From a virus (Duplodnaviria > Caudoviricetes): DNA of 59,141 nt. Made by a program: the position numbers and the translations under genes. Positions within the stretch are counted from its first letter, which is position 1; every line of letters starts with the position of its first letter. The stretch spans positions 1-59,141 of the IMG/VR virus record IMGVR_UViG_3300031851_000029. One strand, 5' to 3'. Shown here one piece after another: positions 6,427-37,113 of this stretch. The notes under the pieces were generated by a model. That model made no database searches and was not told the origin of the DNA. It saw nothing but the letters and a program-made list of their open reading frames with translations.

Positions 6427-7698
6427 CTAAATTGCTAAGTCTAGTCTTTGAAACTTAATTTCTAGAGTTCCCAACTTTGCATATTCTTGTTTATCCACAC
6501 TGTAACTCATGGAGTCTAAAGTTAAACGTTCCGAGCTCTGAAGAGAACCTGAAAAACTTTTTCTTATGTAAACATGATCAAACATTTCCTCAGCAGTGCC
6601 ACGACCATGAATCGTAGATGTAATTCTAGCAGAAGAAGTTATTCGTGCATGAAGAGCCCTAAGTGAAACTTTGCTAATCACGCTATCTGTATTTTTTGAA
6701 AAATATTGATTCATAATCTGAATTATTTCTCTTCTAACAATATTTTGCGCTTCTATAGCTAACTTTTCTTTTGTATGAACTGTCAAGATAAAATCGAACT
6801 TAACTTCTACTCCAGGCATTGCTATTATTCTCAATCCTGCAGTTTGCAAACTAGATATTTTTTCTTGAACGGAGCCAACCATGTTCGTATTTGATTCTTT
6901 ATCAGTTCCAAAAACAAAAACAGCTGCAGTTCCGATTCCATAATAATTCGGAATTGTAGAAACGCTGCGAACTCCAGGAACAGTTAAGGCTCTCATGGCT
7001 ATTGCTGTTTCATTCGAAGAAGCTAAAGCAGTGTAATGGCTTGCAATCCTAAACCTTAAACTTTGATCATCTTCTAAATCTCTTCCATTTAGGATAGACC
7101 TTCTATTTTTACACAATAGTGTTTTTAGGTTAGATTGAGAATATCCAGTAAACGAATGAGAAAGCAAAACATTCTCTGCTACATTCATCGTTCTTCCAGC
7201 AGTCACAGCTTCAATTCCACAGTAAACTATACTGCCGCCAGCAGGAAGCGTATAAGCGCCCTTGGTCTTATAAGTAACTCTTTGCCCTGAAGCAATCCTA
7301 GAAGACGATTCTAAGGCTTCTCCTGCACTGACCACAGTGCCAGCAGGAATAGTAATGTCGCTTCCAGAATTAATATCTCCAAAAGTTCCAGAAGAAACAT
7401 AAAAGGCGAAATTCATTTCTATTGCATCACTGTTGGCAAACTGAACCTGAAGCCTACTTACTCCTCGATTTTCTCCAAGCGCATCTAAAGCTTTACCTTT
7501 AGCGCTTCCAATTTGTATGGCTTCAATAGCTTTCTCTGATCTTGCAGCGACAAGTCTATGCTCTGCAGTAGTTGCGTCAAGCAAACTCCTAGCTACACTA
7601 TCTGAAGCCCAGTGATTGACACCTGCTTTTTCTTTTAACTTGTTTTTTGTTCTGTCTACTACCTTGCTAAAGGGCTCTAAACTTGGTTTGATAGCCAT
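6427..7698 (-). CDS. Baseplate J-like wedge protein
   Basis: Motifs AKGKALDALGENRGVSR, IPAGTVV, NGRDLEDDQSLRFRI and ALTVPGVRSV are typical of baseplate J. Confidence 0.85.
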   Translation of the reverse strand: MAIKPSLEPFSKVVDRTKNKLKEKAGVNHWASDSVARSLLDATTAEHRLVAARSEKAIEAIQIGSAKGKALDALGENRGVSRLQVQFANSDAIEMNFAFYVSSGTFGDINSGSDITIPAGTVVSAGEALESSSRIASGQRVTYKTKGAYTLPAGGSIVYCGIEAVTAGRTMNVAENVLLSHSFTGYSQSNLKTLLCKNRRSILNGRDLEDDQSLRFRIASHYTALASSNETAIAMRALTVPGVRSVSTIPNYYGIGTAAVFVFGTDKESNTNMVGSVQEKISSLQTAGLRIIAMPGVEVKFDFILTVHTKEKLAIEAQNIVRREIIQIMNQYFSKNTDSVISKVSLRALHARITSSARITSTIHGRGTAEEMFDHVYIRKSFSGSLQSSERLTLDSMSYSVDKQEYAKLGTLEIKFQRLDLAI

Positions 7699-7705
7699 TT
7701 TTACC

Positions 7706-8134
7706 TCACACTAATCTTGGGATTAATCTATTTTCTCTCAAATCATATTCAATTTGTACATAAAGCGGTACATTAGAAGCAATTATTTTCCCATAAATTA
7801 ACACTGTAACTCTTGTCAATGCACTAGGTACTACTTCAACAACTAACGACTCAGGAGAAATTACCCCTTCAGCCATCAATACTGACTTGACTACACTTTT
7901 AATTCTTTCACCAGTTTCTCTGGTGTTTGGGAGTCCAGCAAAGCTGTCTAAACTTGCTCCAAATTCAGGGGACATGACCCAGTCTCCTCTAGATGACTGT
8001 AATCTTTTAATTATCGTTTGCTTTGCAACTCGACCTCCATCAGCAGTAGCTTTTTGAATGTCACCATTTGCTCCAAGCTTAAAGTCGCCTTCTTGACACC
8101 AGTGCAAGTCTATACTTTTTTTAGTAATTTTCAT
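7706..8134 (-). CDS. gp25-like baseplate wedge / sheath-initiator protein
   Basis: GDF...NGDI...IIKRLQSSRGDWVMSPEFGASL is the gp25/GPW-like pattern. Start moved to ATG 8134 (AGGA upstream), which removes the overlap with the previous gene. Confidence 0.8.
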   Translation of the reverse strand: MKITKKSIDLHWCQEGDFKLGANGDIQKATADGGRVAKQTIIKRLQSSRGDWVMSPEFGASLDSFAGLPNTRETGERIKSVVKSVLMAEGVISPESLVVEVVPSALTRVTVLIYGKIIASNVPLYVQIEYDLRENRLIPRLV

Positions 8135-8141
8135 AACAATC

Positions 8142-8480
8142 CTAGTCTTTCTCTGAAGCTGCAATTGCGCTCAAAGCGGCAATTGCTCCCGAAGCAACTA
8201 CGACAGGAACCAACATCGGTAACAAATCCATAAAAGGCGGCATAAAGAGAGACTGAGGCATACTTATTGGTCCAGCAAACATATCCATTGGAAATGGCAT
8301 AGGCATCTCCCCTGGAGTCATAGGCTTGTTGCCCAATCTAACTGAACCGCCCAAGGATGCACCATCTTCTGAGACTACGATATTGCCGTCTCCAGAACCC
8401 GTATTGATGACTACCTGACCACCTTCTTGAAAAGAAATATTTGCATCAGGGTAACCCATAAATTTTGTATTTACTGACAT
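8142..8480 (-). CDS. Small baseplate protein, possibly spike-related (112 aa)
   Basis: Short beta-repeat-like N-terminus followed by a Pro/Met-rich and hydrophobic C-terminus. Lies between hub and gp25. TAATG coupling. Confidence 0.4.
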   Translation of the reverse strand: MSVNTKFMGYPDANISFQEGGQVVINTGSGDGNIVVSEDGASLGGSVRLGNKPMTPGEMPMPFPMDMFAGPISMPQSLFMPPFMDLLPMLVPVVVASGAIAALSAIAASEKD

Positions 8481-18000: not shown

Positions 18001-18564
18001 AGTTGGCCTACGTTGCATTTGAGCACCAAAAGTATCTATAGTTCTCTTAATGCTGCCACCCGTAGATGTTTCAAACGATTTAGTTGCCCATTCATTTCTA
18101 TATAGCCAATTTGAAGAGTATGGAAAATAGTTAAACCATCTCAAGTCCAAATCTAGAACCCAGGTGCCAGGACTTCCTTTAAAGTTTTGAATAGTCAAAT
18201 TTGTTAAAGTGAAAGCCATATTCTGGTAGCGTGGCCACGTAGGACATATACTGTCTCTCAAGTATGCATTTTGTACGTAACAAAAAGGGCTTTCCCTGAA
18301 TTGGCATATGAGCCTGTGCATATGTAAAAATAGATCTGGAGTAAAAACTATTCTTACCGATACCTGAACAACACCATGCCCAGAAGGTATTTTTGTAGAA
18401 ACTTTAGTACGTAAAGTTTTCCACTGCCACATCATGTCTTCTTTTCTAATAGAAATATTAGTAGGTGGAATTAAAAGATCTACATCGTTAATTTGAAATA
18501 TAACTTCAGTTGCATCTCTTTCCGAGTCTACAGTAGACGAGACTATTGATTCTTTTGTTGGCAT
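9034..18564 (-). CDS. Giant baseplate hub / tail-tip protein with M23 peptidoglycan endopeptidase (3176 aa)
   Basis: M23 zinc motifs HKGVD (17143-17157) and GNTGTSTNPHLHYEV (HLH at 16639-16647). Hub-like motifs LRPGLNVQLRVGYSNDP and YKGEIMILGNARIRPWD. Several Gly/Ala hydrophobic segments. Confidence 0.75.
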   Translation of the reverse strand: MPTKESIVSSTVDSERDATEVIFQINDVDLLIPPTNISIRKEDMMWQWKTLRTKVSTKIPSGHGVVQVSVRIVFTPDLFLHMHRLICQFRESPFCYVQNAYLRDSICPTWPRYQNMAFTLTNLTIQNFKGSPGTWVLDLDLRWFNYFPYSSNWLYRNEWATKSFETSTGGSIKRTIDTFGAQMQRRPTFVGEIADTPAEIRTYDVVSERTLNIVGGRTFEDMLLTHSGTTFDLAARPSVMSRAAAVVPNLSNIYIRYSNYLQQKNLYECFDVDAADIMGGFAGEWIRYTSGRFPEGFTDDEAPGLENYLIVDALHGPRTLKTHRNEIIDQVMKHTLGIDFVWTEYTSYQVDPRIIQMRVDRREEAVTPERQKLHDAARTISEVARQSRAGTASVSQGSTSNPEVDFSYVEAWDHNSATETSQRVTDRSGTDFTTPGIANEAEYVFHPVVDSKNVSGDFGYRVGTSKSNSHKGVDITGGIGTPIYAPISGTLTVRSIQPVNVLAPPPSWNYDGRYLGYDYLLDAFAVNAQGTSADEFDGKSTARKQLALDYAKQQYGITSYGGNQLRLEGSVEGDDGTLIEYSFNFLHLDNFGEAFGGIVDNARIQGTSRAATGNGFTRVTVERGDIIGYVGNTGTSTNPHLHYEVYVNGSIIDPELALHLQQAEDGTFQYAGNHPRYINMLPAESADPGYDDAEVCEEEVDEESLTGIPDPAIVTSPPAASSGTTLTDEEKEEINNYFMDMYRDGWVPYEDTTEATNILKRTVNYSFLLQNSNFVPGIQPDYNMPVTQSMYNGRSSVGFQEHGRDSIFAVKSPDNLVMTNVVGSLTHIVANIPILGHEFPTHQHLGSMEPSYVFEFSTSADNSRNDNLSEEGALLEYMRQKLQSNARKFRAIPDGHAVATRTFITRLLGTYKVNDFVIPEESAQEFLKKRTVIHRTSTNTIEGYAGMSSMVFELSETNPYNTEALDFAGPSKEPLDKVREAILKCILSLNLTGEGVSNLLLNQISDRYYEQDDIAALLEEHELTPEDFGYENIESIKSLAMIDTDRIIHTRFMAGTQSTADRKAIVTESGDGAFWQQMIASGHVTGQSQTELAPSGSYGGGWSGPTVYVGDRFIDEDGAGQGGGSIDRIYESGDSSGESDFYILSTNSILSTIDARSEGSVFGTSEAHGIDPSVSVIPTVVNLGSFSNVVDTGTDKFIVDTTDFYNIHPQLEARLSGDGADNMTMAKLQGLYYTVYNTLRSARLSLREDTLPNSLPRQEVMQRLFNMPEEYVAGRQWTGYVTYVEAFLTEAIANNAGYDSYRSLASTLGLTMDAKDAAMGGLADRIVSDMSIELSDDDRGYIVHVAAGMAGDDVEGFMGTIKGVAGEAWEGSIDGGMLLLSGDGIHGNQDNANSTLALYREQVKNIRKNYMSEVISINQNIEAGIFDIFTPTLAASLVADWNSALYMTRVPTALEFDYFNDWFFSPVYLSNSPMTSRWVEAMSTAANYSGVAMGATATVLTIVAIAGWLLVPDPTDAALTGAAGGAWSAFATAGSISGQMATIGIAGLAGGGVGATVEMVDGDEIIQGESPTEDSYIGQTQAGIVPDPDVASIGTIAGETAKLQELRKILKEVADIVISDEGLIVSLGLDNIEVPSFSDLVDEYTGMPAYPDLDLPNHPYYTTRFNYAVSPDFYMWNAAEDASLEVKDAIYDEVFAKTSTVVHSAYHHHKRMQREGLEPNSDGGLGIFNHSSDVTQRISRIVSHPEASDEVDLMRSDATYEWAGGTNSEDAAAGRVYGKPVGPNNSSAWVSTGPTGNPFYGSAKGEGQEAQLANYQADSQAAIGVLVENAAAEHQYSAGTTTKGGGTAGAKALTREAFILAATEDESQAPAGTTSSLKTELGESIIDNPPPLSGNDGNTLNISGWAGERENYEELVTKMDSISAMMGSREGYMGNVVTEETAQATADIVVDTRLGAFNEFDNFYKPENLQMLAASSASDVISNKLSVRRAYPTFKLFFVEEDEYESRMLNMDDFYSFNGVKEFTFYSTRKNPGDTAQITLQNINGTLDGTKRNVTVDLDYFNQKEIERQGLDTDPSITTESDDHMHNSGEEQPFGAIVLRPGLNVQLRVGYSNDPNMLEVLINGRIVDLSWNSNGDLCNIVVQSFGTELTQKIKGIEGNDWSTDWHDKIYYTTHQLLGAMMMQPEVAHFGRWEYGTLRQIGEDKNADLDFYPYHKEGFQGSWPVVNSLLDTMTAHPIMTGIGALIGSVVMIRFAGARLAAGQAAKGSAAVSKPFSVSRLIGAPIAATLSGISRIATRGVGVNAATRVGTFFRTVRSGGGVKAGVMHGSRGMSVGRPLGASIDDIAANADEILTFINAPAASVLKGRSLARAQAVQQLVLEGGQAGKALVPLITSRTSGPALRAAVTSAQTNMLTARAVWWPGFGNTPSWGKLLSSPNPLKHIGAITVGNVLIKAPSAVLRMAIPMAIGAAGLDILLGFMKSGYGSLVGSYKKDMARVRARLKLSPADDNLFPPNPASYMTLGFWQRKGVWEKTTLWTRQFAAGIAATFTGTTITTIRDWWKKAFEMPDPHMLEKRVRPTACRYKLVNQTIFDTFEEMSLRHPGWIYGARPYGNEFRYTMFFGLPSQRYWSKPGSRDFITRINKLHSYIVSMIEQDEIDVSVMEAQLKEAYGSEESERMSDEAWAALADIGLRESQTGPNAPTPPVLVRGGTEHKNMLKQAALTKLIPEYLSGMEQRFVPFRRYHILSSDQDIVSNGIVSSETSVVNNVLVSYLKMDSETGSVTNTVQSLDMQASSSIPDYMLNMATVQYPNCTGYGMAVRYGQGSLMTGLKSMYKGEIMILGNARIRPWDVCILMDDYNDMAGPVEVESVIHMFSHETGFLTEIKPNALVYANEISSWPVLEGVKLFAMAYQSLNSDSKTIASRLDNDIGATRLVGGSSAVVDRFTDENMSADDIRNIEHFRERYAATFGTDNPIDEFRNVLRESDLGQATGIDMIAPRFGTTTTSGLAAVFGSAALVFGGARTLSPWLSGGKRLMGFLGGAAGAGAGGTIVWNNRKHLANSAAWMVGMNLLFSKAMEEETVNVIPLLKNGKPIVAGLTLKSPAEMFSSILGAVTNSAEDTINGITTLNEEYSRYREHSWAAFDELHQGRSGFIDKMAHRVSFFNDWKATLPDGPR

Positions 18565-21500
18565 CAGTCCTCCATGATCCTGTTAATTTGATGTGCAGTT
18601 ATAGGCCTTCTTGTATCGTTTACCACGATACTTCCAGAAGATCCAGTCCTAGACATCATACTCATTATATCACTCATTCCCGATCTATTCACTATTTCTC
18701 CACGCATTCTATAAGCATTATTTCTCTGCATTCTAGCTTGCCCAAGATTGATTGGCCTATTGAGCATTTCTGGGTCCGATTGTTGTGGAAGTGAATTTGG
18801 CTGAATGTGTCTATCTGTAGCAGTTCCAGACATAATAGATGCGTTCACTTTAGCATCTGAGAATTCACCAGGTTGAATTATTGGAGTAGGCGAATAGCCA
18901 CTATCTCCAAGTAACGAGCCAACCCCTATACTTGCAACAGCACCTAAGGCTAACGGACCCATCATTTTTGTAGAAGTTAAAGCCTGAGCTCTTCTTATTG
19001 CTTTTGATCCCCTATTCATGAAAGCGCCAATTTGTTCTGCTTGATTTCTTCCTGCAGCCATCATCTGTCCTTGAACGGAGCCTGCTTCTGCAATGCTTGA
19101 TTGCCACATTCTTAATGCATCTGCAGAATCCATCTTGGCCATATTCGATAGTCTTCTCATAGTCTTTACGCCTTCAACTCCGGTTTCTCTAGCCGTGCTA
19201 GAAGCTAACTTGAGGCTTTGCATAATTTCACTTAAATCCACTGAGGTTCCTACTAAAGCATTATTAATCTTCTTTCTTGTTGCAACATCTAAAATGTCAG
19301 AAGTGTCTATTCCAGTAATAGTCATTTTACCTGCTTCTAGATCTGTTCCTCTAAAAACAGTTTTTCTAATAAAGGCTTCAAAAGCTTCAGTGCTTTCGCC
19401 TCCAGAACGAATCATTTGATTAATAGCTTTTTCACCAGCTTCTGTGACTTCTAAACCGACACCAAGCTTCTTAGCTTTGATACCTACTTCTTCTACAGCA
19501 GTTAAAAGGGACATTGCTTGCTGTTGCTTTGCAACATCGCCTGGTCCAAGAGTTGTTCCAACTAGCCCCATTCTTAGCTGATCTAGCGCAACGTCATACC
19601 TACCAACATCTTTTGCAATACGCTCTTTAATAGCCTCTTGATAAGCAAACTGACCCACATCTAGGGGTTGACCAGTTTTTATATGCTCACCTAAATTTTC
19701 AAGACCCTCTTTAGAAGCGTCTACCATCATCCTAGTATGAGCTCTATATTTTATATCTTGTGATAAGATTTCTTCTGATTTTTGATGAATCATTTTTCTC
19801 ATATTCTTACCAGGGAATATGAGTTTATATAAGTCACCATCGAAGTCACCAATCATGCCAGAAGCAATAGACATGTCTAAGGGTCTTACTTTCTGACCAT
19901 AGTGAACCCCAATCTGCATATTGGGGAATAGCAGTCTTGCACCACCTTCACCTGAAGAGTACTTCGTTATGTTCTGAGCCATAGTTGTAAAGAATGCTTT
20001 TTTAGCACCTGCAGTGCCTTTTTCCATATTGGAAATATCTGCAAAGCTAGTTATATTCTTTCCAGCTGCTTTGTTTATTCTGGCTAAAGCTCGATTTCCT
20101 TCTTCTGTAGCTGTGAATGCTTTAAATACAGCGTCATCTGCACCATACCCAACTTCTGCAGCATGCCTAAAGATGCTTGAAGGTGCGATATGGCCTGGGC
20201 CTAACTGAGGATCTCTAACTACAAAAGCATCAACACCAGTCATTTTATCAGATTCCATCCCTGTAAAGAATCTTTCAAAGATTGTGCCAGCATCTTGTGC
20301 TGCTTTCGCTCCAGAACCACCTTCACCTAAAGCTGTTAATGAATTCTTTTCTCCAGCTATGTATTGGCTCATAGCTGAAAGAAAAGTTTCAGTTTCAGCA
20401 AAAACTGCTCTACCTTTAGTATGTCCAAAAGCTTTTTTTGCCCTACCTATTTGTTCATCGTTCAGATCCCAAGAAGGAGAGCTTTTAGTTGAAAGCGTTT
20501 CTCTACGCCCAGAGCTATATTCTGCTGCTGCTTCTTTACCCTGAACACCACTAACTGAATCCCCAGGCATTCCGCCTAAAGATACACTTTGACCTACAGC
20601 CATAGCTGAGCCACGTAGCTTCCCTCTTAGAAGTCCTCTGTTAGTTGCTGCCCATATTTCTGCCATGTCTCCTTTAAAGGAACGCATTGCTTCAACCGAT
20701 CTTCCCATATCTTCTGTTGATCTCATTGAGATAGAATCTATTCGAGCTAAATCTCCTGAAAAAGTAGACATTCTTCTTACATATTCGTTTTCGATAGTCA
20801 TGGCACCTTCCAGTCCTGGAATCTTAGTACCTTTCATCATGTCGATTGTGTCTCCACCAGCAACAAAGAAACCCCCAGAATGACCAAAAGCAGTTTTAGC
20901 AGCATTTTTGATATTGCCACTTCCTTCAAAATCAAGCATAAAGCCGCCAGCGCCTCTAAATCTTTCGCTTCTAAGGAAAGACTTCATGCTCTCTGGATCT
21001 CTACCCATCAGCTCTTTGTAGCTAACTCTCTCCATTTTTTGAAATCTAGATTGCTCGGTTATTCTAGTGTTGCCAGCAATAGACTCTTCCATCCTAGTAA
21101 GGGACCTAAGTGTTGATAACTCTTTTTCAGTACCTTCTTTTCTTGCAAGGAGCCCTGTCATGAAATCTGATACAGTATCTACGGGTAAGCCCATAATATT
21201 TTGCAACCTATGTTGCAAGAACTGATAAGTTCTAGGCTCCATTGAGCCTAAATTTCTTCTATATTCAGAAGCTTGCGGTCCTGGAACCAAAGAGCCTAAA
21301 CCTAGCGCCCAACCTTCTTTTGCAACCTTGATTATTTCCTCCGCATTATGCCCACCAAGATGCTTGCTTATCAGCCTTCCAACAGCTTTGTCAGCATCTT
21401 TAATTCCTGCTTTTTGACCTATCTTTCCTAAATGTTCTTGAACTCCAGCAAAAGCCATTCCTGCTAATCTTGGGTTTATAGGCTGGCCAGATTTAGCCAG

Positions 21501-23897
21501 ACCTTGAGCTGTAGCCTCAATTACTGAAGTTAAATACTTATATTGCTTTTTAAAAGCCATAGTCTCTTTGCCGTAATCAAGTTTGCTTAATGCACCACTA
21601 GCCAAACTGTTTACTTCTGATCTAAATGCATTCGCATTTTGACCTGTAATCAAAGTGGCCCCTCCAACTAGTTGGTTTGCCAAATAAGCAGGACTCTTCT
21701 TCAGCATCGATCCTTCAGTCAAAAGCATGTTTGATTCATTTATGTTGGCTGATCGTAAAACCTCAGTCATTGAGACTCCACCAACTTGCTGTTGTGCTAT
21801 TCGAGAACTAACGTTTTCATTTATAGGCTTTACAGTTCCCTTGAATAGGGGGCCGAACACTTTAGCAAAAGCAGATTGAACAGTATATTGCCCTGAAAAA
21901 TGAAGCATCTTCTTTTGTGTAGTGCTTGTCATTTCTTCTAAACCGATATCTAAAGACTTAATTCCAGCCCATCTAGGCAATCCTACTTCTCCCAAGTTTT
22001 CATTAAAACCCATCAAAGCCATTCCCCCGTCTTTGCCGCCAAACACTTTGTAAAAATCATCCATACTGCTGATAGTTTGCCCTGCTAAACTTGGGCTAAG
22101 GAGCTTTGTGCTTTGCCCTTGGCCAACTTTAAGCCTGCCTCCAGCTTGTTGCTGGTGCATCAATTCATTTGTCAATAGAGTTGAGATTTTTTTGTGACCG
22201 CTAGTCCTTGGATCTACAATAGTCTTAGTTAAATCATTAGTAACCATCAGACCCCTCTTGGGATCTCCCATGTAAGCTTCACCCTCACCAAGACCGAGCC
22301 CCCTACCTTTAACATCTAGTACGTGGGCTCTTTGAATTGCACCACTTGCAACGTCTGCTGCCAAGTCTAGACTTTGTCCTACTGAACGAACTGTTCCTGA
22401 AACTCCGAAACCAGGCAAAGGATTGAAGCCTTGATTGCTGAATATAGAGGATCTACCAATAAACTGCTTTTCTCTTGCAGTTACAGGCTGTAGGGTTCTG
22501 TCTAATTCTATACCAATGCCTCTCATCTTCGAAAGAGTTCCCCCCTCTCTCATAGACATGGAAAAATATGCACTTTCATCTTTCATCAAATTGACCATTG
22601 GGTCTCCAGCAGTATCTAAGAATCCTGGGCTATTAGCACCTAACAATGCTCTAAAAACTCTATTCTCACTCCTTGTAAGCTTCTGCGCATCTAAGAAAGT
22701 TACCGTATTCTGCTGAACTGCAAGGTTACCTTGCATCTTGTTGAAAAGTGCTCCACTATGCCTAAAGGACCTTGGCATCTGTTCCGACACGTCAGTTAAG
22801 GCGCTATGGTAAAATTTAGGCTGTAGATATTCTAAGCCACGCTTACCTGCCATCTCTTCAAATTTGCGTACTGCAAATTCGCTGAATGTGAAAAACGCTC
22901 CGTTCTTTTTACCAAGTTCACCTACCACCATAGACTGAGTGAGGCTTTTGCTGCCTCCACTAGTCATTCTTGAAACTTCTGGAGCATCTCCATAAAGCCT
23001 TCTTGTTGCATACGTAGTAGTTCCTTGCCCGCCTCTGTATATACCAACATGCCCTATACTTCCCTTGTTTTGTACAAGGGCGCTTGCCAACTGTATAGGG
23101 ACATTGATGAAATTAGAAGTTCCTCTACTCGCTGCAAGAGGGCTCTTGTATACTCTTGCATATGTAGAAGTGCCACCACCTTCTTTGATCTGGCCTAATT
23201 GAACTAAATCTTTAGCGTTTGCACCTGCAGCTTTCATTATCCTGCTATACCTACTCCTTGCTAAAGGATCTAAGTCATCTGGATTTAGTATTGGGTTGAA
23301 TTTTGGGCTTAAGCCTTGAAGGTCGACTTGTGCTGGGCCAGTAATTACGTTTGCATATGGACTAAGATTTTTGAAGAGTCTTCTTGCCTTGCCTTTTCTC
23401 TCTTCATCTCCAGATGACATCACAGATTCCATAACTTGTTTTATCATCTTTTCTTCAGATTCGATCATACTGCTTTGATCTTTAGATAAGAGTTCTAACA
23501 ATTGGTCTTTTATTCCTGGGGCAAGTCCACTGTCTGATTGATCAACTAGCTCAATAGCACTACCAATAAGTACTCTTCTGCTTTCTGCGCCTTCTTCAAG
23601 CATTTTTCTAATTTGGCCTCCCTCAAGAAGGCTTTGCCTCAAGTTGTCAGCTTTGATTCGGTTGTTTCTTTCTAGAAGCTTGTCTAGATTCTCACCGACT
23701 CTCATGTTCGCTTCTTTTATACCGTTATTGATGCCACCACCCAATAGTGCCCTATTAGACTTTATTCCATTGAGTGCAAAAGCGCCGCCGACAAACATTG
23801 GTGCTATTCCAATTGCTCTCCCAACAAGAGAGCCTGCTAGCGTAGCATCTGATAGAATTTGATTTTTCTTATCATTAGGATCATCACTGAATGACAT
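18564..23897 (-). CDS. Putative virion-associated single-chain two-barrel RNA polymerase (1777 aa)
   Basis: Catalytic GDFDGD (19833-19850) preceded by FVVRDPQL (R-x-P, 20208-20216), as in the beta' barrel. Upstream AKVFGPLFKG (21837-21863) resembles the two-lysine motif of the beta barrel. Embedded in the tail operon. Confidence 0.75.
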   Translation of the reverse strand: MSFSDDPNDKKNQILSDATLAGSLVGRAIGIAPMFVGGAFALNGIKSNRALLGGGINNGIKEANMRVGENLDKLLERNNRIKADNLRQSLLEGGQIRKMLEEGAESRRVLIGSAIELVDQSDSGLAPGIKDQLLELLSKDQSSMIESEEKMIKQVMESVMSSGDEERKGKARRLFKNLSPYANVITGPAQVDLQGLSPKFNPILNPDDLDPLARSRYSRIMKAAGANAKDLVQLGQIKEGGGTSTYARVYKSPLAASRGTSNFINVPIQLASALVQNKGSIGHVGIYRGGQGTTTYATRRLYGDAPEVSRMTSGGSKSLTQSMVVGELGKKNGAFFTFSEFAVRKFEEMAGKRGLEYLQPKFYHSALTDVSEQMPRSFRHSGALFNKMQGNLAVQQNTVTFLDAQKLTRSENRVFRALLGANSPGFLDTAGDPMVNLMKDESAYFSMSMREGGTLSKMRGIGIELDRTLQPVTAREKQFIGRSSIFSNQGFNPLPGFGVSGTVRSVGQSLDLAADVASGAIQRAHVLDVKGRGLGLGEGEAYMGDPKRGLMVTNDLTKTIVDPRTSGHKKISTLLTNELMHQQQAGGRLKVGQGQSTKLLSPSLAGQTISSMDDFYKVFGGKDGGMALMGFNENLGEVGLPRWAGIKSLDIGLEEMTSTTQKKMLHFSGQYTVQSAFAKVFGPLFKGTVKPINENVSSRIAQQQVGGVSMTEVLRSANINESNMLLTEGSMLKKSPAYLANQLVGGATLITGQNANAFRSEVNSLASGALSKLDYGKETMAFKKQYKYLTSVIEATAQGLAKSGQPINPRLAGMAFAGVQEHLGKIGQKAGIKDADKAVGRLISKHLGGHNAEEIIKVAKEGWALGLGSLVPGPQASEYRRNLGSMEPRTYQFLQHRLQNIMGLPVDTVSDFMTGLLARKEGTEKELSTLRSLTRMEESIAGNTRITEQSRFQKMERVSYKELMGRDPESMKSFLRSERFRGAGGFMLDFEGSGNIKNAAKTAFGHSGGFFVAGGDTIDMMKGTKIPGLEGAMTIENEYVRRMSTFSGDLARIDSISMRSTEDMGRSVEAMRSFKGDMAEIWAATNRGLLRGKLRGSAMAVGQSVSLGGMPGDSVSGVQGKEAAAEYSSGRRETLSTKSSPSWDLNDEQIGRAKKAFGHTKGRAVFAETETFLSAMSQYIAGEKNSLTALGEGGSGAKAAQDAGTIFERFFTGMESDKMTGVDAFVVRDPQLGPGHIAPSSIFRHAAEVGYGADDAVFKAFTATEEGNRALARINKAAGKNITSFADISNMEKGTAGAKKAFFTTMAQNITKYSSGEGGARLLFPNMQIGVHYGQKVRPLDMSIASGMIGDFDGDLYKLIFPGKNMRKMIHQKSEEILSQDIKYRAHTRMMVDASKEGLENLGEHIKTGQPLDVGQFAYQEAIKERIAKDVGRYDVALDQLRMGLVGTTLGPGDVAKQQQAMSLLTAVEEVGIKAKKLGVGLEVTEAGEKAINQMIRSGGESTEAFEAFIRKTVFRGTDLEAGKMTITGIDTSDILDVATRKKINNALVGTSVDLSEIMQSLKLASSTARETGVEGVKTMRRLSNMAKMDSADALRMWQSSIAEAGSVQGQMMAAGRNQAEQIGAFMNRGSKAIRRAQALTSTKMMGPLALGAVASIGVGSLLGDSGYSPTPIIQPGEFSDAKVNASIMSGTATDRHIQPNSLPQQSDPEMLNRPINLGQARMQRNNAYRMRGEIVNRSGMSDIMSMMSRTGSSGSIVVNDTRRPITAHQINRIMED

Positions 23898-26800
23898 TAT
23901 AATACTCCTCCGTAAGCACCAAGCGCACCCATAATCTCTGTAGATCTATCATCATTCATGTAGAAGTTTCCGTGACCTTGATTCATCATACCCTCAAGCC
24001 TAGACACAGATGCTTCACCAGGCGACCTATACTGAACCCCTGGCCCTCTACCAGCATTAAAGATTTGTCCAGCAATACTGAACGGGTCTGGGCCAGGAAG
24101 TTTTCGTAAGAAGTCATCAGAGCCTTCAAGGTAAGGTTTTCTTGCGTTATTTCTAACTGCTGAATGCCAATATCCGTACTCATGTAAATCTTTTCCTAAA
24201 TTATCAATATATTTTACTTCAACATCGTCTATATTAACATCTTCGTGCCAGCCAATCCAGTCTGTACTAGGCATCATACCGCTATATTTGTGTTGCTGTA
24301 AGTTATTAAATTGACTACCCAAATGAGAATCTGAAGCTGCCGTTTGAGAACCAACGTATAGACTTGGGTCACCTCTGTCAGATCTATCCCAGATTGCCTT
24401 ATAAAGATGATGCTGATCTTTAGGAATCATACTTAAGATCTTGCTCCTTTCTTTTGGACCAGCCATGCTGAATGCATCAAAGAAAGGTTTTTCAGAATCT
24501 GGCAATGTCATATAGATTGACATTGCATCTGATTGGGGGTTGACACCATATCTCGTTTGAGAAGCCATATTTGTGTGGAACCGCTGATCTCCACTTCTGC
24601 CTTGCATTTGAGCCATAGAAGCTAATTGCATTTGCTTTTGAAATTCAAGCTTATCGAAAAAGCTTTGCTGCTCATCAGCTTCTCTTCGCCACAAAGGCTT
24701 GCCTGCGATGTCTAAGGGATCCATAAAGTCTATAGCGCTATAAAAAGCAGGTCTGAACCAGTCTCTTATTGGTTTGTCCCAAAAAGCAAATTGACTACCA
24801 TACATTCTCTGATACTGATATTCTTCAATCATGTCTCGATCAGACATAAGTTTTTGCACTGGCCTGAAACCACCAGGAACCATGTACTCCACAGGAGCAA
24901 CTGCTTTTCTTATAAATTTTTGAGCTGAAGCTTGAGCTCCCTGAGTTATATTAGATAAGAGGGGAACCTCTATAGCGTTTGGATCAACCCTGTCAAAGGT
25001 TCTACTGATTCTTTCGTTGTAAAGTCGGTCAACGCCATCCATCATGGCGTTTTCTGCATCAGTTGTTATTCCTTCTGATCTTTTTGTATATAACCTTTGT
25101 CTAATGTTCTTGAACTCTTTAGACATAGGCGCAACGTCTGCAAGGATAGCCATCTTAAAAATATCTGGATAATCTTCTTTAGAAAACCCTTTTAAAGCTG
25201 GATTGATAGCTTCATAACCGCTACCCGGAAGTCTAAGGTGTCCTTCATCAATAAGCCTGTAAGGATCTCCATGCTTAAATCTATCTGGAAGCCAATAAGG
25301 CATCCTATTCATTAGGGGATTATACTCTTCTATTTCTCCTCTCTTCTTTGGCAAAAAACGTCTAATTGGCTCAGTCATAAAAAGACCACCACCAAGATTT
25401 AAGTCCCAAAAAGCTTCTCCAGGATCAGTCATTGATCCTGCACTTGCCATTATCGGTCTTTGTGTTCCAAAAGTTTCTATGCCTGTGTTTGCTTTTTGAA
25501 CCATGTTTTTGGCCCAACCCGTCAAGCCTTCTAGTTCTCTAAACTGATGCTGCATGCCTCCAGCAATATATCCTGCAGAAAACGGAGAGTAAGGAACACC
25601 CGCTGACTTGCCTCCAAGTCCAGGAGCCGCTCCTCTTATTTCGGGCTTGTGCTTAAACTCTATACTTCCATCAGGGCCCTCCCTCATGTATTCTGAAGTA
25701 TGCATGAGCTTTGCAGGCTTTATTAGTCTGCCAATGGTTCCAGAAAGCAACCCTCCTATAACTGGAACATCTTCAAATGCTGCACCACTAATTGGGTAGG
25801 GTCTATCCCAATAGTTTTCTTTTTCTATGTGGTAAGTAAAGTTCTTTAAAAAGAATTTTCTAATTGGAGATATTTCATCTTCATTTTCACCCCAAGCAGA
25901 CTTCTGTCTAGCTCGGCTCATCATAGCTACGTATGCATGAGGTCTATGATATTTTACTTCAGCGCCCTCAAATGGTGTACCACCACCTTCCCACCACCTA
26001 CCTCTTTTGACAGCTACTTGCTTCTGACCACTATATATTGCACTAAGCTCAGAAGGACCTTCCATGCTTCCTAAAAGAGCACCAGTGGCAAGCTGTTGAA
26101 AAGCTAGAGCTCCAGCAAATAAAGTTCCAACTCTGCCAAGTCTACTTTTAAAACCATGTTTTGCCAGAACTCCAACTTCTCCTCTAACTTGGTTTCCATG
26201 CAGGGCTTCTCCCTGCATATTTGCACCAAAGAGGCTGTGTATGAATTTTGCTCCAAATCCATGAAGCCCTCTAGCTATTTTTGCAGCGTTGCCATCACCT
26301 TGGTACTTTAATCCAATATCATCCAATCTCTCAGCAAGAGCTTTGTTCACAATATTATTATTTTTTAACTCTTCTCTTCTCGTTTCAGTTGCAGTCTCAA
26401 ACACATGATGCAACTCTCTAAGCATACCATCTACTGGGCCAGCACCTTTTGAAGAAGCATGCTTATAGAGGTAAGAGTAAAGCTTAGATCTTTGCCTTCT
26501 GGTTCTTAAGTCTTCTGGGCCTTTGATACCCATTTGATCTAAGAAGGGTTCTATCTCAGATAAGTTCTTTCTTAAGTAACTATTTATAGGTGAAGTGCCG
26601 TCTTTTAAGTTTGGACTTTCTCTAAGTATTTTATAAAGAGATTCTCCTACACCAGTACTTAAAGATTTTGGTAGATCTGTTGTGGTGGCGTTTATCATTG
26701 ATTGGCCCAAGCCAATACTCTTCCTTAAGTCACCAGACATGTGCTCTAGCATTTTGCCAGTGAGCCCACCTCTCATGAATAAATCTGGCATACTCATTAT

Positions 26801-29693: not shown

Positions 29694-29915
29694 TTATATC
29701 CAGACAATAATGTTGTCTTTAGTATTGTTTATAATATCTTTTATTTCATATGCTGTCAACGTATCGTTGACTCTTGAATTCCCTGAAAGGAAGTTCTTTT
29801 TTATAGCTTTGGTGTCTTGATTAAGTATAACAACTTTTGTTCTATCGGGATAGAAAAAGTTATAATGTCCCACCTCACTTAAATAAACTTTTGTACCTTT
29901 CTCAAGCAACATCAT
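29694..29915 (-). CDS. Small hypothetical protein (73 aa)
   Basis: TAATG coupling with the upstream gene and AGGAG just upstream. Fills the gap in the operon. Confidence 0.55.
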   Translation of the reverse strand: MMLLEKGTKVYLSEVGHYNFFYPDRTKVVILNQDTKAIKKNFLSGNSRVNDTLTAYEIKDIINNTKDNIIVWI

Positions 29916-30649
29916 TAATCTCCTACTGATAGTGCTCTTGCGAAAAAACTATACTCTTCTAATATCACATTTTCATCTATCTGTATACCTGAAGACCTAC
30001 TTACAAAAAAAGCACTGTGAAGCTCTACATTGAATTGGTTGGCAAATTCAATTTTAATGTTTGTTGGACCAATAAGAGTCAAGTCAGTATTTCTATATTG
30101 TTGTCCCCCACGTGCAGCAGCCTCAGCTTCCGCTTGAGTCATATTCAATAAGCCAGCCCTATCCCAGTAGTGAGATTGCAATTCAGAAGTAAGAAATTGT
30201 ATATTTTTGTCTATGTCTAATACACCACTGTCTGCAGCTTCATATCCATTTTGTGCTATTCCACCAGTTCCACCAGTTCTCCACAAATCGCCTATATTCC
30301 TTGCGTAAGTAGGTGGGCGCTGATCTCCAGGTGTAATAACTACACCTTCATCATCTACAAGAGCGCTACGTGTGAGCTCCTCTAATGGACTACCACTAGT
30401 ATCTCTACCCATCAGTATAGATTCAAATAAATAATCTGGATCTACTTGGTTGACAACAAGTGTACCTTGTATGATCTTTTGTCCTGGAGCTACAGCGTCA
30501 AACAGACGAGAAGAATAGCCGTATATTGGCTGCATAGAGTCTTGTTCAGTATAAGATATGCCAGCAGCTTCCAACAGTGGTTGACCGTCAACAGTTATGA
30601 AGACGTTAGCACCGCAAAAGTAATCATATGGATAAAAATTAGTAGCCAT
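29915..30649 (-). CDS. Tail-tube-like protein (paralogue 3)
   Basis: YFCGANV...ISYTEQDSMQPIYGY...GQKIIQGTL...IQIDENVILEEYSFFAR aligns by eye with the tail tube protein. Confidence 0.7.
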   Translation of the reverse strand: MATNFYPYDYFCGANVFITVDGQPLLEAAGISYTEQDSMQPIYGYSSRLFDAVAPGQKIIQGTLVVNQVDPDYLFESILMGRDTSGSPLEELTRSALVDDEGVVITPGDQRPPTYARNIGDLWRTGGTGGIAQNGYEAADSGVLDIDKNIQFLTSELQSHYWDRAGLLNMTQAEAEAAARGGQQYRNTDLTLIGPTNIKIEFANQFNVELHSAFFVSRSSGIQIDENVILEEYSFFARALSVGD

Positions 30650-30655
30650 TATTCA

Positions 30656-31936
30656 CTATCCTACATCATAGCCAGGTGGCCTACCGTTGATAGTTGCTGG
30701 AAGTTCAACACCCTCTTGGCTCTGCGCCTCTCTAATCACTCTTCTGGTAGCTCTAGCCTTACTCAGCCTGGACTTAAGGGCTGTTTCTTGCGCTTTCATA
30801 CCGTCTTTAATGTCCCCACGAACTTGACTAGTCATGCTTTCAGCTTCACCTCTCAACTGAGCAAAGACTTCTGGAGGAAGTTCATCTGGACGGTAAGAAA
30901 GTATAGAGCTTTCGTGAATTGTGCTTAATTGTTTAACATCTTGCGCTACAAACTGTATAACGACTTCTGTCACCATATCGTTTACTGAAGTTGTGATCCC
31001 TTCTGATATTATTTCAATCCCTTCGATCATCATAGTTGCAACTTTAGGAACGTTAAAAGCAACTGAAGAAACTCCAAGATATGGATCTTTCATCGAAAGC
31101 CTTCTGTCTCTTCTTGCTGCTCTGCTTCTTCCTTGTGCGTCTTTTACTATATTGGTTCCGTCTAATACGGGATCAGGCCAATTTGTTTCTGAAGGGTGCT
31201 CCTCTCTAAAAGCCTCTACAGCCTCATTTGCACTAACTGTAAAGTTTACTTTTGACTTTGGAAGCACTTCTGACTGATAACGCAGAATCATGTCAAAAGG
31301 TTTGAGAAGTGTAGATATGCGAGTGTTCCCTGGATAAGTATCCAGAGTACCTGGCTGGCGATAACCGCCTTGGCCTAATGAATCCATGTCTAAAGAAAAG
31401 CTACTATCAGATGGATTAAATTTTGACTGGGGCTGATATGCAAGTTTTCTAAGTGGATGGTCTTCTACGACTAATAGAACCATTGTCCCAGCAATGGTTC
31501 TTACTGACCTTGCAAAGCCTTTAGTTCCTCTATGCCCAAGTGCTCTTACCGGAGCTTTCGGCTCATGTATTGAGATTGAGACAGTTGCAAGACTTTCTAA
31601 ATGAACTGGTGTCCCAGCTCTAATCTTTTCTTCTAATCTGTTTATGTCGCTTTGCAAGGCTTCTATGTAGCGCCTCTCTCCTCCTAGCTCCTGTGGTCCA
31701 GCCATAGTCGTGTCAGTTGATTCTGCCGCAAGTGCTCTGCCAGATCCACTGACAGCGCTCATCTCACTTCCAGCTGCAGTTACTACAGAGTCCGTGTTGA
31801 TCGCCGCAAGTCTGGCCTTCTGTATTCTAAGTTGAGCAATATCGTGTTCACTAGGCGCAGAAGTATGCCCATAGTAAGCGAATGCTGCTACATCTGAACC
31901 TGAAAAAGAGTATCTATTTTGATCGTAGTATGCCAT
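30656..31936 (-). CDS. Tail-tube-like protein with insertions (paralogue 2)
   Basis: SFSGSD...SISIHEPKAPVRALG...RTIAGTMV...GIEIISEGITTSVNDMVTE. Start moved to ATG 31936 because the track's TTG start lies inside an intergenic hairpin. Confidence 0.7.
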   Translation of the reverse strand: MAYYDQNRYSFSGSDVAAFAYYGHTSAPSEHDIAQLRIQKARLAAINTDSVVTAAGSEMSAVSGSGRALAAESTDTTMAGPQELGGERRYIEALQSDINRLEEKIRAGTPVHLESLATVSISIHEPKAPVRALGHRGTKGFARSVRTIAGTMVLLVVEDHPLRKLAYQPQSKFNPSDSSFSLDMDSLGQGGYRQPGTLDTYPGNTRISTLLKPFDMILRYQSEVLPKSKVNFTVSANEAVEAFREEHPSETNWPDPVLDGTNIVKDAQGRSRAARRDRRLSMKDPYLGVSSVAFNVPKVATMMIEGIEIISEGITTSVNDMVTEVVIQFVAQDVKQLSTIHESSILSYRPDELPPEVFAQLRGEAESMTSQVRGDIKDGMKAQETALKSRLSKARATRRVIREAQSQEGVELPATINGRPPGYDVG

Positions 31937-31952
31937 GGAAGCCCCAATAGGT

Positions 31953-31986
31953 AGTTGCAGTGGAAGCCTAAACTCCCACTGCAACT
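31953..31986. other. Intergenic 11-bp perfect hairpin downstream of the tail tube gene
   Basis: AGTTGCAGTGG (31953-31963) pairs with CCACTGCAACT (31976-31986). The T-run follows only on the plus strand. Confidence 0.7.
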
Positions 31987-31999
31987 TTTAAACTAAATA

Positions 32000-32635
32000 T
32001 TAAGGCGCGCCCATTGATGATCCAGCCGTACTCATGTCCCATTGACCTAACTGCTGCCATGGAAGTATAGTTCTGCAAACGTAAGTCATCTGATTTTCAA
32101 TAACAATATCGTCAATTGAGAAACCAGAACCTTCGTTGAGAATTTCAACACCATAGATACGCATAGTAGCAGCCTTTCCATATTCGTTAGCAGCAACAAT
32201 CGTTACATCGAATGGTGGAAGTTGGTCTACATAAAATGCGCCTCTAACAGTAAAGTTGTCACCGATATCTGCCGCATCGAATGTGACTCCAGCGGGGTCC
32301 GTTAGATCAGCCGTGCTTGAAGCATCGTTTAGATCTGCAGGTGATGAGAAGATCTCATCTTTGTCAGCAAGGAAATTCATATTGGAAAACGGTGTTCCAA
32401 ACAGAATGTGCTGATCGAGTAAAAGGGAAATAAGAGTCCCGGCAATACCACGCTTGCCACGAGAGAAAGAAAGTGGATCAACTCTACCCATAACATATAT
32501 GGGGGCCTTCTCACGCTGTACTGCATAAGAGATAGCCTGGAGCTGACCTACGGTCTCGCCATCGATAACGGCTCTGATATCTACGCCTGAAAAACTTGTA
32601 TAAGTTCTTGATAATTCTAATGCTGTTGTAGCCAT
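32000..32635 (-). CDS. Major tail tube protein
   Basis: Immediately follows the sheath gene, with AGGAG SD. Reads SFSGVDI...ISYAVQREKAPIYVMG...GKRGIAGTL...YGVEILNEGSGFSIDD. Confidence 0.85.
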   Translation of the reverse strand: MATTALELSRTYTSFSGVDIRAVIDGETVGQLQAISYAVQREKAPIYVMGRVDPLSFSRGKRGIAGTLISLLLDQHILFGTPFSNMNFLADKDEIFSSPADLNDASSTADLTDPAGVTFDAADIGDNFTVRGAFYVDQLPPFDVTIVAANEYGKAATMRIYGVEILNEGSGFSIDDIVIENQMTYVCRTILPWQQLGQWDMSTAGSSMGAP

Positions 32636-32645
32636 GTTCTATCTC

Positions 32646-34703
32646 CTAGCTTGTTAGCTCTGTCTCTTCTGCTGCAAGAGAAGTTTCGATTGTGATTGCC
32701 TCAATAGAGAACGGTGGAATCATTTTCAACTTAATTGTAAGTCTACCCATGATTTTGTCTTGTCTCGTATAAGACATGCTTGCAATAGCACCCTGGTTAA
32801 AGCCGAGTGCCTTTTCTGCCTTCAAGAAGCCGTCAATTGCAGTTTGTAAAGACATAAGTCTAGTACTTGAGAATTCCTTACCAATGTAATTCTTGGCAAT
32901 GTCTCTAATACCATCAATCTGTCTATTAACGGATCTAATTGTTGACAATCTTGTATAGTCTGAATTGGGGTGAGCTGCAGTTCTGCACGAAACAATAATG
33001 AAGCCAACGCCATCTTCTCTTCTAAGTCCACATGTTCTAGCTCTTGCAAGCTGGTTCATTTGTGGGCCTCGGAGCCTGATTGGCGAACTAACCCTTCTAA
33101 CTCTACCATTGATACCAATTGGCTCTTCATTTTGTGGGGTAACAGCAATCTTGCCTGCAAGACTAGCTGAAAACTGTCCACGATAATTAGAGCCACCATT
33201 GTATGAGTTTCTGTGCACTGGGTGCTCATAGCTAAACAATACATGCTTGCCAATATCAACTGGCTTGTCATTAGCATCTAGCAATTCATCTGCATCTCCT
33301 ATACCGTAAACAAAGTTGGTTCCATTTGGCAAAGACTCACCTTTTGTAAGAATGAGACCACCGTAAGCAGCACCATCACCAGAAGTTGAGTCGTCAAGAA
33401 TACCATCTCTGTAACCAGCTTGACCACCAACGAATGTGTGACCAAGCACACCATCGCCACCATCTGCGGATCCGTCAATACCAAGATCTGTTCCAAAGTA
33501 AGTATAAGATGGAAGCTCGCCTGCCCACTCAGCAACAGTCATTCTGTCATAAGCTGCAGGTGGAGAGAAAGAGATAAATCCAAGCATTGACTTCCATACA
33601 GTAGAAGCTCTGTAACAAAAACTAGCAAGCTGGTGAGCATAGCTACATTCTCTTACTTCTGCTTCTGTGGCAGCAGCCCACTTTGTTGCAACGGCAGCAG
33701 GGACAGTGTCACCTGTTAACTGTGCATGAGTCAGTGTATTAGTTGCTAAAGCGGGATCTCCATCATCAAGGAAGTAAGTATAAACTTTTCCTCGATACTG
33801 GTATTGCCACAACCAACCAAGAACATCGTTAGCTGTATCGCCAGCAGTAGGTACTGACGAATAGTCTGGTGTATAAAGAGCAGAACCTGATGCAGTAGAC
33901 CAGTGAGAGAAGTTGTCTTGATCTACGATATTTCGTGAATCGACATAAGTCCCACATGGAATAACATAGTCTCCATCTCTATAGTCAAGCATAGAGTATG
34001 CATGCTCAAGTGCAGCATATCTTTCAAGTAAAGACATTGCCGCACCATCATCGCCAGCAGCAGAACCAAGATAAGTCCAAGTACCGGCTGACCATGTTGG
34101 GACTACCGAAGCAAACGGACCTTCTGTTGAAGCACCTAAAGTACCAACAAGATCTGCAAGCACTGGTGTTAAATCTGGATCATCTGGATTGTTGATATCT
34201 CCAATAGTGAAGGCACCAAGTGCTGCAGTATCTACAACAACACTTAATACTCCAATATCTACGACAAGGATTTCTGAGCTATCATAAGCCCAAGAACCAT
34301 CCTCTCTGTCCCAGAGAAGTATTCTCGGGTCACCAGCTGAATCAGCAGTAACGATAAGAGAGTACCTGTCTAGGATTTGTTCATCTCTATACTCGGGAGT
34401 AATAGAGATAGCTTGCACTCCAGATTCGAGTGCCAAAAAGGCACCCTTTTGACCACCAATACGCATCACTGCAATATTGTCGGATCCTTGAGCAAGCGCC
34501 TCATGAAGAGGCTTCATTATTTCGGCTGTAGCGCCAAATTCTTTTTCTGCAGCAGACACACTACGGACATTGTATAGTCTGTAAGTTAAACCACTGCTTG
34601 CTGAACCAAGAATTATTATTCTTGGCTGTGTCGAAACTGAAGGAGAATGGAATGCACCATCTAAATAAGTGGCTCCAACTCCTGGTATACTTTCGTAAGG
34701 CAT
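32646..34703 (-). CDS. Tail sheath protein
   Basis: N-terminal IPGVGATYLDG, AEKEFG, and C-terminal YTRLSTIR...YIGK...LTIKLKMIPPFSIEAITI. AGGAGG SD. Confidence 0.9.
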   Translation of the reverse strand: MPYESIPGVGATYLDGAFHSPSVSTQPRIIILGSASSGLTYRLYNVRSVSAAEKEFGATAEIMKPLHEALAQGSDNIAVMRIGGQKGAFLALESGVQAISITPEYRDEQILDRYSLIVTADSAGDPRILLWDREDGSWAYDSSEILVVDIGVLSVVVDTAALGAFTIGDINNPDDPDLTPVLADLVGTLGASTEGPFASVVPTWSAGTWTYLGSAAGDDGAAMSLLERYAALEHAYSMLDYRDGDYVIPCGTYVDSRNIVDQDNFSHWSTASGSALYTPDYSSVPTAGDTANDVLGWLWQYQYRGKVYTYFLDDGDPALATNTLTHAQLTGDTVPAAVATKWAAATEAEVRECSYAHQLASFCYRASTVWKSMLGFISFSPPAAYDRMTVAEWAGELPSYTYFGTDLGIDGSADGGDGVLGHTFVGGQAGYRDGILDDSTSGDGAAYGGLILTKGESLPNGTNFVYGIGDADELLDANDKPVDIGKHVLFSYEHPVHRNSYNGGSNYRGQFSASLAGKIAVTPQNEEPIGINGRVRRVSSPIRLRGPQMNQLARARTCGLRREDGVGFIIVSCRTAAHPNSDYTRLSTIRSVNRQIDGIRDIAKNYIGKEFSSTRLMSLQTAIDGFLKAEKALGFNQGAIASMSYTRQDKIMGRLTIKLKMIPPFSIEAITIETSLAAEETELTS

Positions 34704-34724
34704 AAGACCTCCTAAAACCTATAA

Positions 34725-36070: not shown

Positions 36071-36075
36071 TCTTA

Positions 36076-37104: not shown

Positions 37105-37113
37105 TTCTTTACC

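Follow-up and report, generated by a model that had tools for sequence, protein, structure and literature searches.

A contractile-tailed phage with a candidate virion-delivered RNA polymerase in its tape-measure slot

The viral record IMGVR_UViG_3300031851_000029 of IMG/VR, judged 45% complete, comprises 59,141 nucleotides, all of which were analysed and are referred to here as the window. All large genes of the window lie on the minus strand and make up the structural module of a phage. Between the genes for the tail tube and those for the baseplate stand three consecutive giant open reading frames (ORFs), and the subject of this report is the middle one, an ORF of 1777 amino acids (aa) hereafter called the target (Table 1). 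Its product sits in the slot of a tape-measure protein and carries, within a single polypeptide, a residue signature characteristic of two-barrel RNA polymerases (RNAPs). In what follows, we describe this signature and its conservation, the genomic position of the target, its predicted fold in comparison with known polymerases, and the readings that these observations allow.

Residue signature of the target and its family

According to Ruprich-Robert and Thuriaux (2010, PMC2919709), all two-barrel RNAPs have eight residues in common: three aspartates, the arginine and proline of an R-x-P motif, two basic residues and an additional aspartate that belongs to the other barrel. The R-x-P residues correspond to R446/P448 of Rpb1 and R962/P964 of QDE-1, the basic pair to K979/K987 of Rpb2 and R738/K743 of QDE-1, and the eighth, acidic residue to D837 of Rpb2 and D709 of QDE-1 (PMC2919709). 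An earlier note on this DNA, made from the sequence alone, had claimed AKVFGPLFKG, VVRDPQL and GDFDGD for the product of the target ORF, and translation places all three where the note had put them. The order from N to C terminus, with the lysine pair followed by R-x-P and then by the aspartates, is the beta-then-beta' order in one polypeptide that the note had also described. A degenerate DNA pattern for GDFDGD matches the window only once, at the motif itself on the minus strand, and matches 0/100 dinucleotide-preserving shuffles. The target motifs go beyond chance because they are conserved in homologues.

To collect these homologues, residues 450-1600 were run with phmmer against the full set of 1.84 billion representatives. 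The resulting family comprises 104 clusters (50% identity) at E<=1e-3, with 67 at E<=1e-30; word-based searches had returned 8 relatives only. Family members are usually 1650-2050 aa long, bear the name "hypothetical protein" or none in every case seen at source, and include one relative from a Tara Oceans sample. The target homologue is present as a single copy in 5/5 relatives searched; two of these genomes, of 161 kb and 183 kb, are complete and carry terminal repeats.

In an alignment of 82 sequences that are 19-55% identical to the target, seven of the eight universal residues show no variation or almost none, and they stand in the right order (counts in Table 1). The earlier note had made its proposal depend on conservation of the motifs in homologues, and on this point the alignment bears it out. 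Position +4 at the R-x-P motif is L, V, I or M in 81/82 sequences, the glycine that follows K686 is less conserved (51/82), and the family pattern at the aspartate triad reads G-D-[FYW...]-D-[GA]-D. Moreover, an alignment of 43 sequences has only 13 invariant core columns, and 7/13 are residues of the polymerase signature.

The spacing of the motifs is partly familiar. K679 and K686 are 7 residues apart, as against 8 in Rpb2 and 5 in QDE-1, and K686 and R1228 are separated by a fairly constant 455-771 aa throughout the family. From R-x-P to the triad there are 110-147 aa in most members versus 45 in QDE-1, with a maximum of 1493 aa in the longest, a sign that an insertion hot spot probably lies between these two elements. 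Four members, P0084 (3265 aa), P0095 (3221 aa), P0077 and P0079, have inserts of roughly 700-1500 aa there and keep the remaining architecture; in P0084 and P0095, the two longest members, the insert measures ~1400 aa. A third near-invariant basic residue, K734, may be equivalent to the funnel arginine of Rpb2.

Outside the core the protein has a hydrophobic segment near each end. The proline/glycine pattern of the N-terminal segment is conserved in the family consensus, in which the C-proximal segment is likewise kept. The target has 0 cysteines.

Position in the structural module

The window is syntenic with two phages, Acinetobacter phage vB_AbaM_ME3 (ME3) and Bacillus phage 0305phi8-36. 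BLASTP against the ORFs of both gives matches for terminase, portal, capsid, sheath and tube. The first giant matches a 1263-aa ORF of ME3 (5e-50) and gp145 of 0305phi8-36 (5e-18), and the third matches the "baseplate hub" of ME3 and gp147 of 0305phi8-36 (~1e-11). The target has no BLASTP match among the ORFs of either phage. In ME3 the giants measure 1263, 1603 and 2329 aa and follow the same order as in the window. Two small ORFs upstream of the giants are, from their position, taken to be a two-gene tail chaperone, and a single gene (the first giant) lies between them and the target, as in 0305phi8-36.

The occupant of this slot in 0305phi8-36 is gp146, recorded as a "hypothetical tape measure protein" whose gene is downstream of two tail chaperone genes. 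According to the record notes, gp145 and gp146 are both virion proteins by mass spectrometry. The tape-measure assignment of gp146 was made from tail length, and only its last 60 residues are described as alignable in relatives (Hardies et al., 2007, PMC2147016). The order of terminase, portal, capsid, sheath, tube, chaperones, gp145, slot and hub is shared with the window, and gp146 ends in a C-terminal N/D-D-R tail as the target does; it differs in its length of 2537 aa and has no BLASTP or hidden Markov model (HMM) similarity to the target. The target therefore takes the tape-measure slot in a myovirus resembling 0305phi8-36, and the tail operon in which the earlier note had placed it can be narrowed, by synteny with orf143-147 of 0305phi8-36 and with ME3, to that exact slot. 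The arrangement recurs in 8/8 IMG/VR loci with a homologue, which include two near-identical pairs: each has three consecutive giants after two ORFs of ~220-290 aa.

The C-terminal tail is a further shared feature. Its pattern h-x-h-N-D-x-R, in which D1761 and R1763 are invariant in 28 sequences, also ends the first giant of the window (23897-23980, minus strand), both the first and second giants of 6 related loci, gp145, gp146 and the 1603-aa protein of ME3. It is possibly a tail-assembly or docking signal. We considered the first giant and the target as paralogues; BLASTP ruled this out, the two being unrelated apart from the tail motif.

Two neighbouring genes deserve mention in their own right. 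The Peptidase_M23 domain of the 3176-aa third giant, at ~aa 620-655, accounts for its sole similarity to the tape measure protein of P23-45 (5e-05); this giant has three hydrophobic segments and 10 cysteines, and the first and second giants are cysteine-free. A 1109-aa ORF adjoining the terminase gene contains a staphylococcal-nuclease domain (Table 1).

Table 1. Positions of features in the window and in related genomes (residue counts from the 82-sequence alignment)
Feature	Residues	Nucleotides	Strand	Residue counts	Remarks
Target ORF (P0001)	1777 aa	18564..23897	-		tape-measure-slot protein with two-barrel-polymerase signature
AKVFGPLFKG	aa 678-687	21837-21866	-	K679, 81/81 K; F681, 79/81; K686, 79/81 K + 2 R	basic pair K679 + K686; candidates for the role of Rpb2 K979/K987
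K734	aa 734	21696..21698	-	80/81 K + 1 R	third near-invariant basic residue, 48 aa C-terminal of K686
VVRDPQL	aa 1226-1232	20202-20222	-	R1228, 82/82; P1230, 82/82	R1228-x-P1230
GDFDGD	aa 1350-1355	19833-19850	-	D1351, D1353, D1355, each 81/81; G1350, 72/82	candidate Mg-binding aspartate triad D1351, D1353, D1355
Core	aa 450-1600	19098..22550	-		confident compact predicted fold (AlphaFold2)
N-terminal hydrophobic segment	aa 24-42	23772..23828	-		Kyte-Doolittle 19-aa window, 1.68
C-proximal hydrophobic segment	aa 1645-1664	18906..18965	-		Kyte-Doolittle 1.71
Shared C-terminal tail in target	N1760, D1761, R1763	18567..18635	-		h-x-h-N-D-x-R, ~15 residues before end
Baseplate wedge proteins		6427-8164	-		
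Giant 3	3176 aa	9034..18564	-		baseplate-hub type; Peptidase_M23, PF01551 2e-12
Giant 1 (P0112)	1434 aa	23897..28201	-		homologue of 0305phi8-36 gp145
Two small ORFs	265 and 221 aa	28205..29675	-		tail-chaperone position as 0305phi8-36 orf143/144; weak BLASTP match to ME3
Tube-like proteins		29915-32635	-		
Tail sheath		32646-34703	-		
Major capsid protein		38510-39832	-		
Portal		43645-45546	-		
Terminase		49417-51603	-		
ORF adjoining terminase	1109 aa	52427-55756	-		staphylococcal-nuclease domain PF00565, 1e-14, aa 818-926
Hairpin-T-run-TTTAATGG elements		57112-57197, 57530-57615, 58056-58141, 58392-58477 (57167, 57585, 58111, 58447)	+		
YonO/QDE-1-like protein of relative G001	952 aa	L129:1849-4707			R-Y-P and G-D-D-D-G-D motifs
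Homologue of it in relative G002		L138:1501-4548	minus strand of locus		4e-71
Homologue of it in relative G004		L139:214-3312			directly after element cluster

Predicted fold and comparison with known polymerases

An AlphaFold2 model of the core (1151 aa, 43 sequences) reached a mean predicted local distance difference test score (pLDDT) of 87.8 and a predicted template modelling score (pTM) of 0.86, and a separate model of the 286-aa fragment around DFDGD (aa 1215-1500) reached a pLDDT of 90.2. Both motif groups are surrounded by strand-rich modules. K679 and K686 lie on two short strands of the core model, R1228-x-P1230 stands at a strand end, the aspartate loop has a short helix before it and a strand after it, and the R-x-P strands are set apart from the later ones by ~60 aa of helical insert. 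The modelled arrangement of strands and loops at the motifs is compatible with a barrel.

The structural neighbours of the core were sought with Foldseek. Among the best 50 of its PDB matches, 6 are second-largest RNAP subunits or chains of the phage AR9 RNAP (E 0.24-2.1, prob 0.10-0.44). Against BFVD there are 5 matches at E<=1e-3, namely two ME3 proteins, one unnamed protein, one "minor tail protein" and one protein of a Microcystis phage; among the 50 matches listed, 9 are named RNA polymerase (prob 0.01-0.72), and those named tape measure have a prob of at most 0.06. The recurrence of weak matches to RNAP beta subunits is suggestive only, and comparison of predicted folds neither confirms nor excludes two barrels.

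The ME3 matches allow a closer comparison. One BFVD entry (E 2.3e-5, prob 1.00), identified with its ORF by length only, corresponds to the 1603-aa ORF (33172-37983) that occupies the same slot in ME3, and this protein has K-F-F-S-x3-K (aa 632), R-E-P and G-D-H-D-Q-D (aa 1216) in the same order and relative position as the target. It differs in having no sequence-level similarity and in its R-x-P, which lies ~45 aa before the triad with no insert. As such, the polymerase signature seems to extend to a cultured phage. The best BFVD match of the core is a 798-aa ME3 protein (E 1.8e-6). An ORF of that length in ME3 (KU935715, 224453-226849, minus strand), outside the structural module, is probably this match and may be a non-catalytic relative of the fold. 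Polymerases of ME3 and 0305phi8-36 were also sought with the patterns D-[FY]-D-x-D and D-x-D-G-D, of which the first matches fell in unrelated genes.

Sequence searches place the target in no known family. Pfam assigned it 0 families at E<=1, hence no PF05183, PHROGs no family and the ESM Atlas no usable match; a tblastn search of 50,697 phage records came back empty, as did phmmer against PDB sequences. The family profile found no match in the genomes of ME3, P23-45 and 0305phi8-36, hhalign aligned nothing with ME3 proteins or gp146, and BLASTP of the target against P23-45 gp96 gave no match. A six-frame search of the G001 homologue placed Pfam RNA_pol_Rpb1_2 on the DFDGD region below cut-off (14.3 bits, E 0.0037, model positions 124-155), a match that is not independent of the motif itself. 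According to Chaban et al. (2024, PMC10770324), many two-barrel families resemble one another significantly in the DxDxD region alone, and for this reason the profile negatives weigh little either way. No description of the target family was found in the literature; the supplementary lists of PMC10770324 (23 RNAP families, two-RNAP viral genomes), which lay outside that search, could change this.

A close known parallel is gp96 of Thermus phage P23-45, a giant virion protein with DFDGD in tape-measure position (Chaban et al., 2024, PMC10770324), as the target is a DFDGD giant in the same position. In both systems, one and the same module includes membrane segments and a metallopeptidase, and gp96, like the target, is described as unrecognisable by sequence outside the motif. 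P23-45 also has a second, non-virion two-barrel polymerase expressed from an early gene, to which a YonO/QDE-1-like gene in relatives of the target would correspond. The differences are nevertheless clear: P23-45 is a siphovirus and the virus of the target contractile-tailed; the polymerase part of the target is an ORF of its own with hydrophobic segments at both ends, the M23 peptidase being in the next ORF (the hub), and no fusion of polymerase and metallopeptidase in one tape-measure polypeptide occurs among the 104 family matches; and the target family has the long R-x-P to DxDxD interval with its helical insert. A second parallel, gp66 of phi14:2, a crAss-like phage, is likewise a single chain of ~2000 aa with DFDxD at about two-thirds of its length, its gene being the second in an uninterrupted row of three that encode giant virion proteins (Drobysheva et al., bioRxiv 2020.03.07.982082), although phi14:2 is a podovirus-like crAss phage. 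Both gp96 and gp66 were found by the same logic and validated biochemically (PMC10770324; bioRxiv 2020.03.07.982082). YonO and QDE-1, in turn, resemble the target in having both barrels in one chain and a basic pair ahead of R-x-P and DxDGD (PMC2919709; PMC5467207), whereas the target has no PF05183 signal and its lineage has a separate gene of that type that is not detectably related to it.

A second polymerase gene and the readings weighed

This separate gene encodes proteins of ~950-1030 aa in relatives of the window, with R-x-P and G-D-[DN]-D-G-D motifs. The 952-aa protein of G001 has a match to the Pfam family RdRP (PF05183) below cut-off (E 0.0024, 17.1 bits), the homologues of G002 and G004 alone have no Pfam RdRP match, and the top three PDB matches of the family profile are QDE-1 chains (E 0.13-0.17). 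Judged from its sequence, the gene is a candidate for a second, non-virion polymerase. In both G001 and G004 it has upstream of it a repeated element in three parts: a GC-rich hairpin whose sequence varies and which often has a tetraloop, then a T run, and then TTTAATGG, which does not vary and is identical in 9/9 aligned copies. In the window, such elements separate small plus-strand ORFs at the right end, beside the structural module; G001 has 6, all within ~2 kb of the genome ends (1408-1840, 160258-161015; reversed-pattern control 0), and G004 has 7 within 3.8 kb (94195-97955). The count of the TTTAATGG 9-mer in the window alone is not significant (3 observed vs 1.07 expected). The element may combine a terminator with a promoter specific to the phage.

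No homologue of the YonO/QDE-1-like gene turned up in the window or in G003 and G005, two incomplete records; because the window ends ~0.7 kb after its last element, a copy of its own, should there be one, would lie out of sight. In 0305phi8-36 a gene of this YonO-like type, orf99, lies outside the tail module (PMC2147016), and the target is therefore not simply the known YonO-like enzyme. In this lineage the slot protein seems to be paired with a YonO/QDE-1-like gene located at the genome end. In P23-45 the virion enzyme fused to the tape measure is reported to transcribe the gene of the non-virion enzyme (PMC10770324), a scheme that the pairing in relatives of the target resembles, by analogy.

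Considering the signature, its conservation and its genomic position together, we think it fairly probable that the target is a virion-delivered single-chain two-barrel RNAP in the tape-measure slot of a marine, contractile-tailed phage. By analogy it most likely works like P23-45 gp96 and crAss gp66, while being a detectable member of neither family. A number of results weigh against this interpretation. The earlier note had proposed an AlphaFold/Foldseek check for two double-psi barrels, which did not show them: the core has 161 PDB matches at E<=10 and 0 at E<=1e-3, with P23-45 gp96, crAss gp66 and QDE-1 absent from the best 50 of the 161, and the DFDGD fragment has 0 RNAP matches among those listed, its matches being helical proteins such as TolC. 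Profile methods point the same way, with only noise in a family-profile hmmsearch of PDB sequences, a probability of 0.3% in hhalign against gp96 aa 1-1200, nothing against the lineage's own YonO/QDE-1-like family, and only 13 columns, with DFDGD placed on DFDID (E 0.17), against 52 crAss gp66 cores. Pfam matches on 28 family members are scattered, with no family in more than one member and neither RNA_pol_Rpb1_2 nor PF05183 among them. Moreover, no clear counterpart of the eighth universal residue emerged, since N-terminal of K679 no column of the 82-sequence alignment is invariantly acidic; D562 (60/81) and D528 (58/77) come closest, in the part where the alignment is least reliable. A compact domain of ~1150 aa is also awkward cargo for a tail lumen. 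Finally, gp146 fills the same slot with neither DxDxD nor R-x-P, and the 798-aa ME3 protein, if it is the sole 798-aa ORF of that phage, has no acidic triad; if correctly matched, it indicates that the fold can occur without the catalytic motif. Of the divergent single-chain two-barrel polymerase proposed in the earlier note, then, the motifs, their order and their conservation have held up; the barrels were not seen, Pfam, PHROGs, PDB and hhalign searches returned nothing beyond the motif, and no conserved counterpart of the eighth residue emerged.

Some of the same results would suit an ordinary tape-measure or ejection protein, which sets tail length and forms part of a trans-envelope channel, and in which the acidic loop and basic residues serve metal binding or another non-polymerase role, be it structural or hydrolytic. 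The target lies in the exact slot of gp146, a protein assigned from tail length (PMC2147016) and devoid of DxDxD; it has terminal hydrophobic segments and no cysteines, its C-terminal tail is the sole part still alignable in the lineage, and it has no significant fold or profile link to polymerases. A ruler, however, needs no invariant G-D-[FYW]-D-[GA]-D loop together with R-x-P and a lysine pair, and it is precisely this polymerase signature that supplies the most conserved positions of the family. The core is predicted to be compact and of mixed alpha/beta structure, which is atypical of a long helical ruler, and the weak Foldseek matches favour RNAP beta-type subunits over tape-measure proteins, among the matches listed. 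We hold this explanation to be rather unlikely. The active-site evidence applies equally to a two-barrel enzyme with another job, such as a transcription motor that pulls the genome in, a polymerase that makes primers or copies RNA templates, or an enzyme whose substrate is host nucleic acid. Two-barrel enzymes do include RNA-dependent and DNA polymerases (PMC2919709; PMC10770324), and the YonO/QDE-1-like polymerase of relatives could handle gene expression. Against this, the virion two-barrel enzymes that have been tested, gp96 and gp66, are both reported to be DNA-dependent RNAPs for the earliest genes, polymerase pairs in one phage are reported as common (PMC10770324), and the sequence holds no hint of another template; we give such a role a small chance. 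It seems very improbable, lastly, that the target is a degenerate, inactive polymerase relic kept as a structural scaffold. The eighth universal acidic residue does seem not to be conserved, and a motif-less structural relative may exist in ME3, but relics lose catalytic residues, and here these are invariant across sequences of only 19-55% identity.

If the target is a virion RNAP, the following course of events can be proposed. The central ~1150 residues would constitute a very divergent single-chain two-barrel nucleotide polymerase, in which K679, K686 and K734 would hold the nucleoside triphosphate and the RNA 3' end, and R1228-x-P1230 and D1351/D1353/D1355 the catalytic Mg2+. The protein would be assembled into the tail along with the first giant via the shared C-terminal N-D-x-R tail, and so be present in the virion. 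On sheath contraction it would be expelled, its two hydrophobic segments would fix it in the host envelope, and as the DNA passes it would synthesize RNA from the first-entering genes, which in relatives may include the gene of the YonO/QDE-1-like second polymerase. Far more tentatively, and as a possibility that we would not count on, the contractile-tailed lineage (marine 0305phi8-36-like phages and possibly ME3) may run a two-polymerase cascade, in which an injected slot RNAP, from a sequence family with no relation to those described so far, chooses hairpin-T-run-TTTAATGG elements at the leading end as its promoters and switches on the YonO/QDE-1-like enzyme. Were this cascade real, ejection-coupled transcription would be a recurrent feature of long-tailed phages rather than an oddity of a Thermus siphovirus.

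Genes of this kind are at present nameless, or would be called tape measure proteins. Were the target confirmed as a polymerase, the range of tape-measure-associated virion RNAPs would widen: beyond one group of Thermus siphoviruses it would take in a large family that lacks annotation, carried by large contractile-tailed phages of marine and other metagenomes. Polymerase evolution could then also be studied on a minimal two-barrel enzyme of great divergence, and injection-coupled transcription would become testable, with candidate promoter elements at hand and possibly a cultured relative in ME3.

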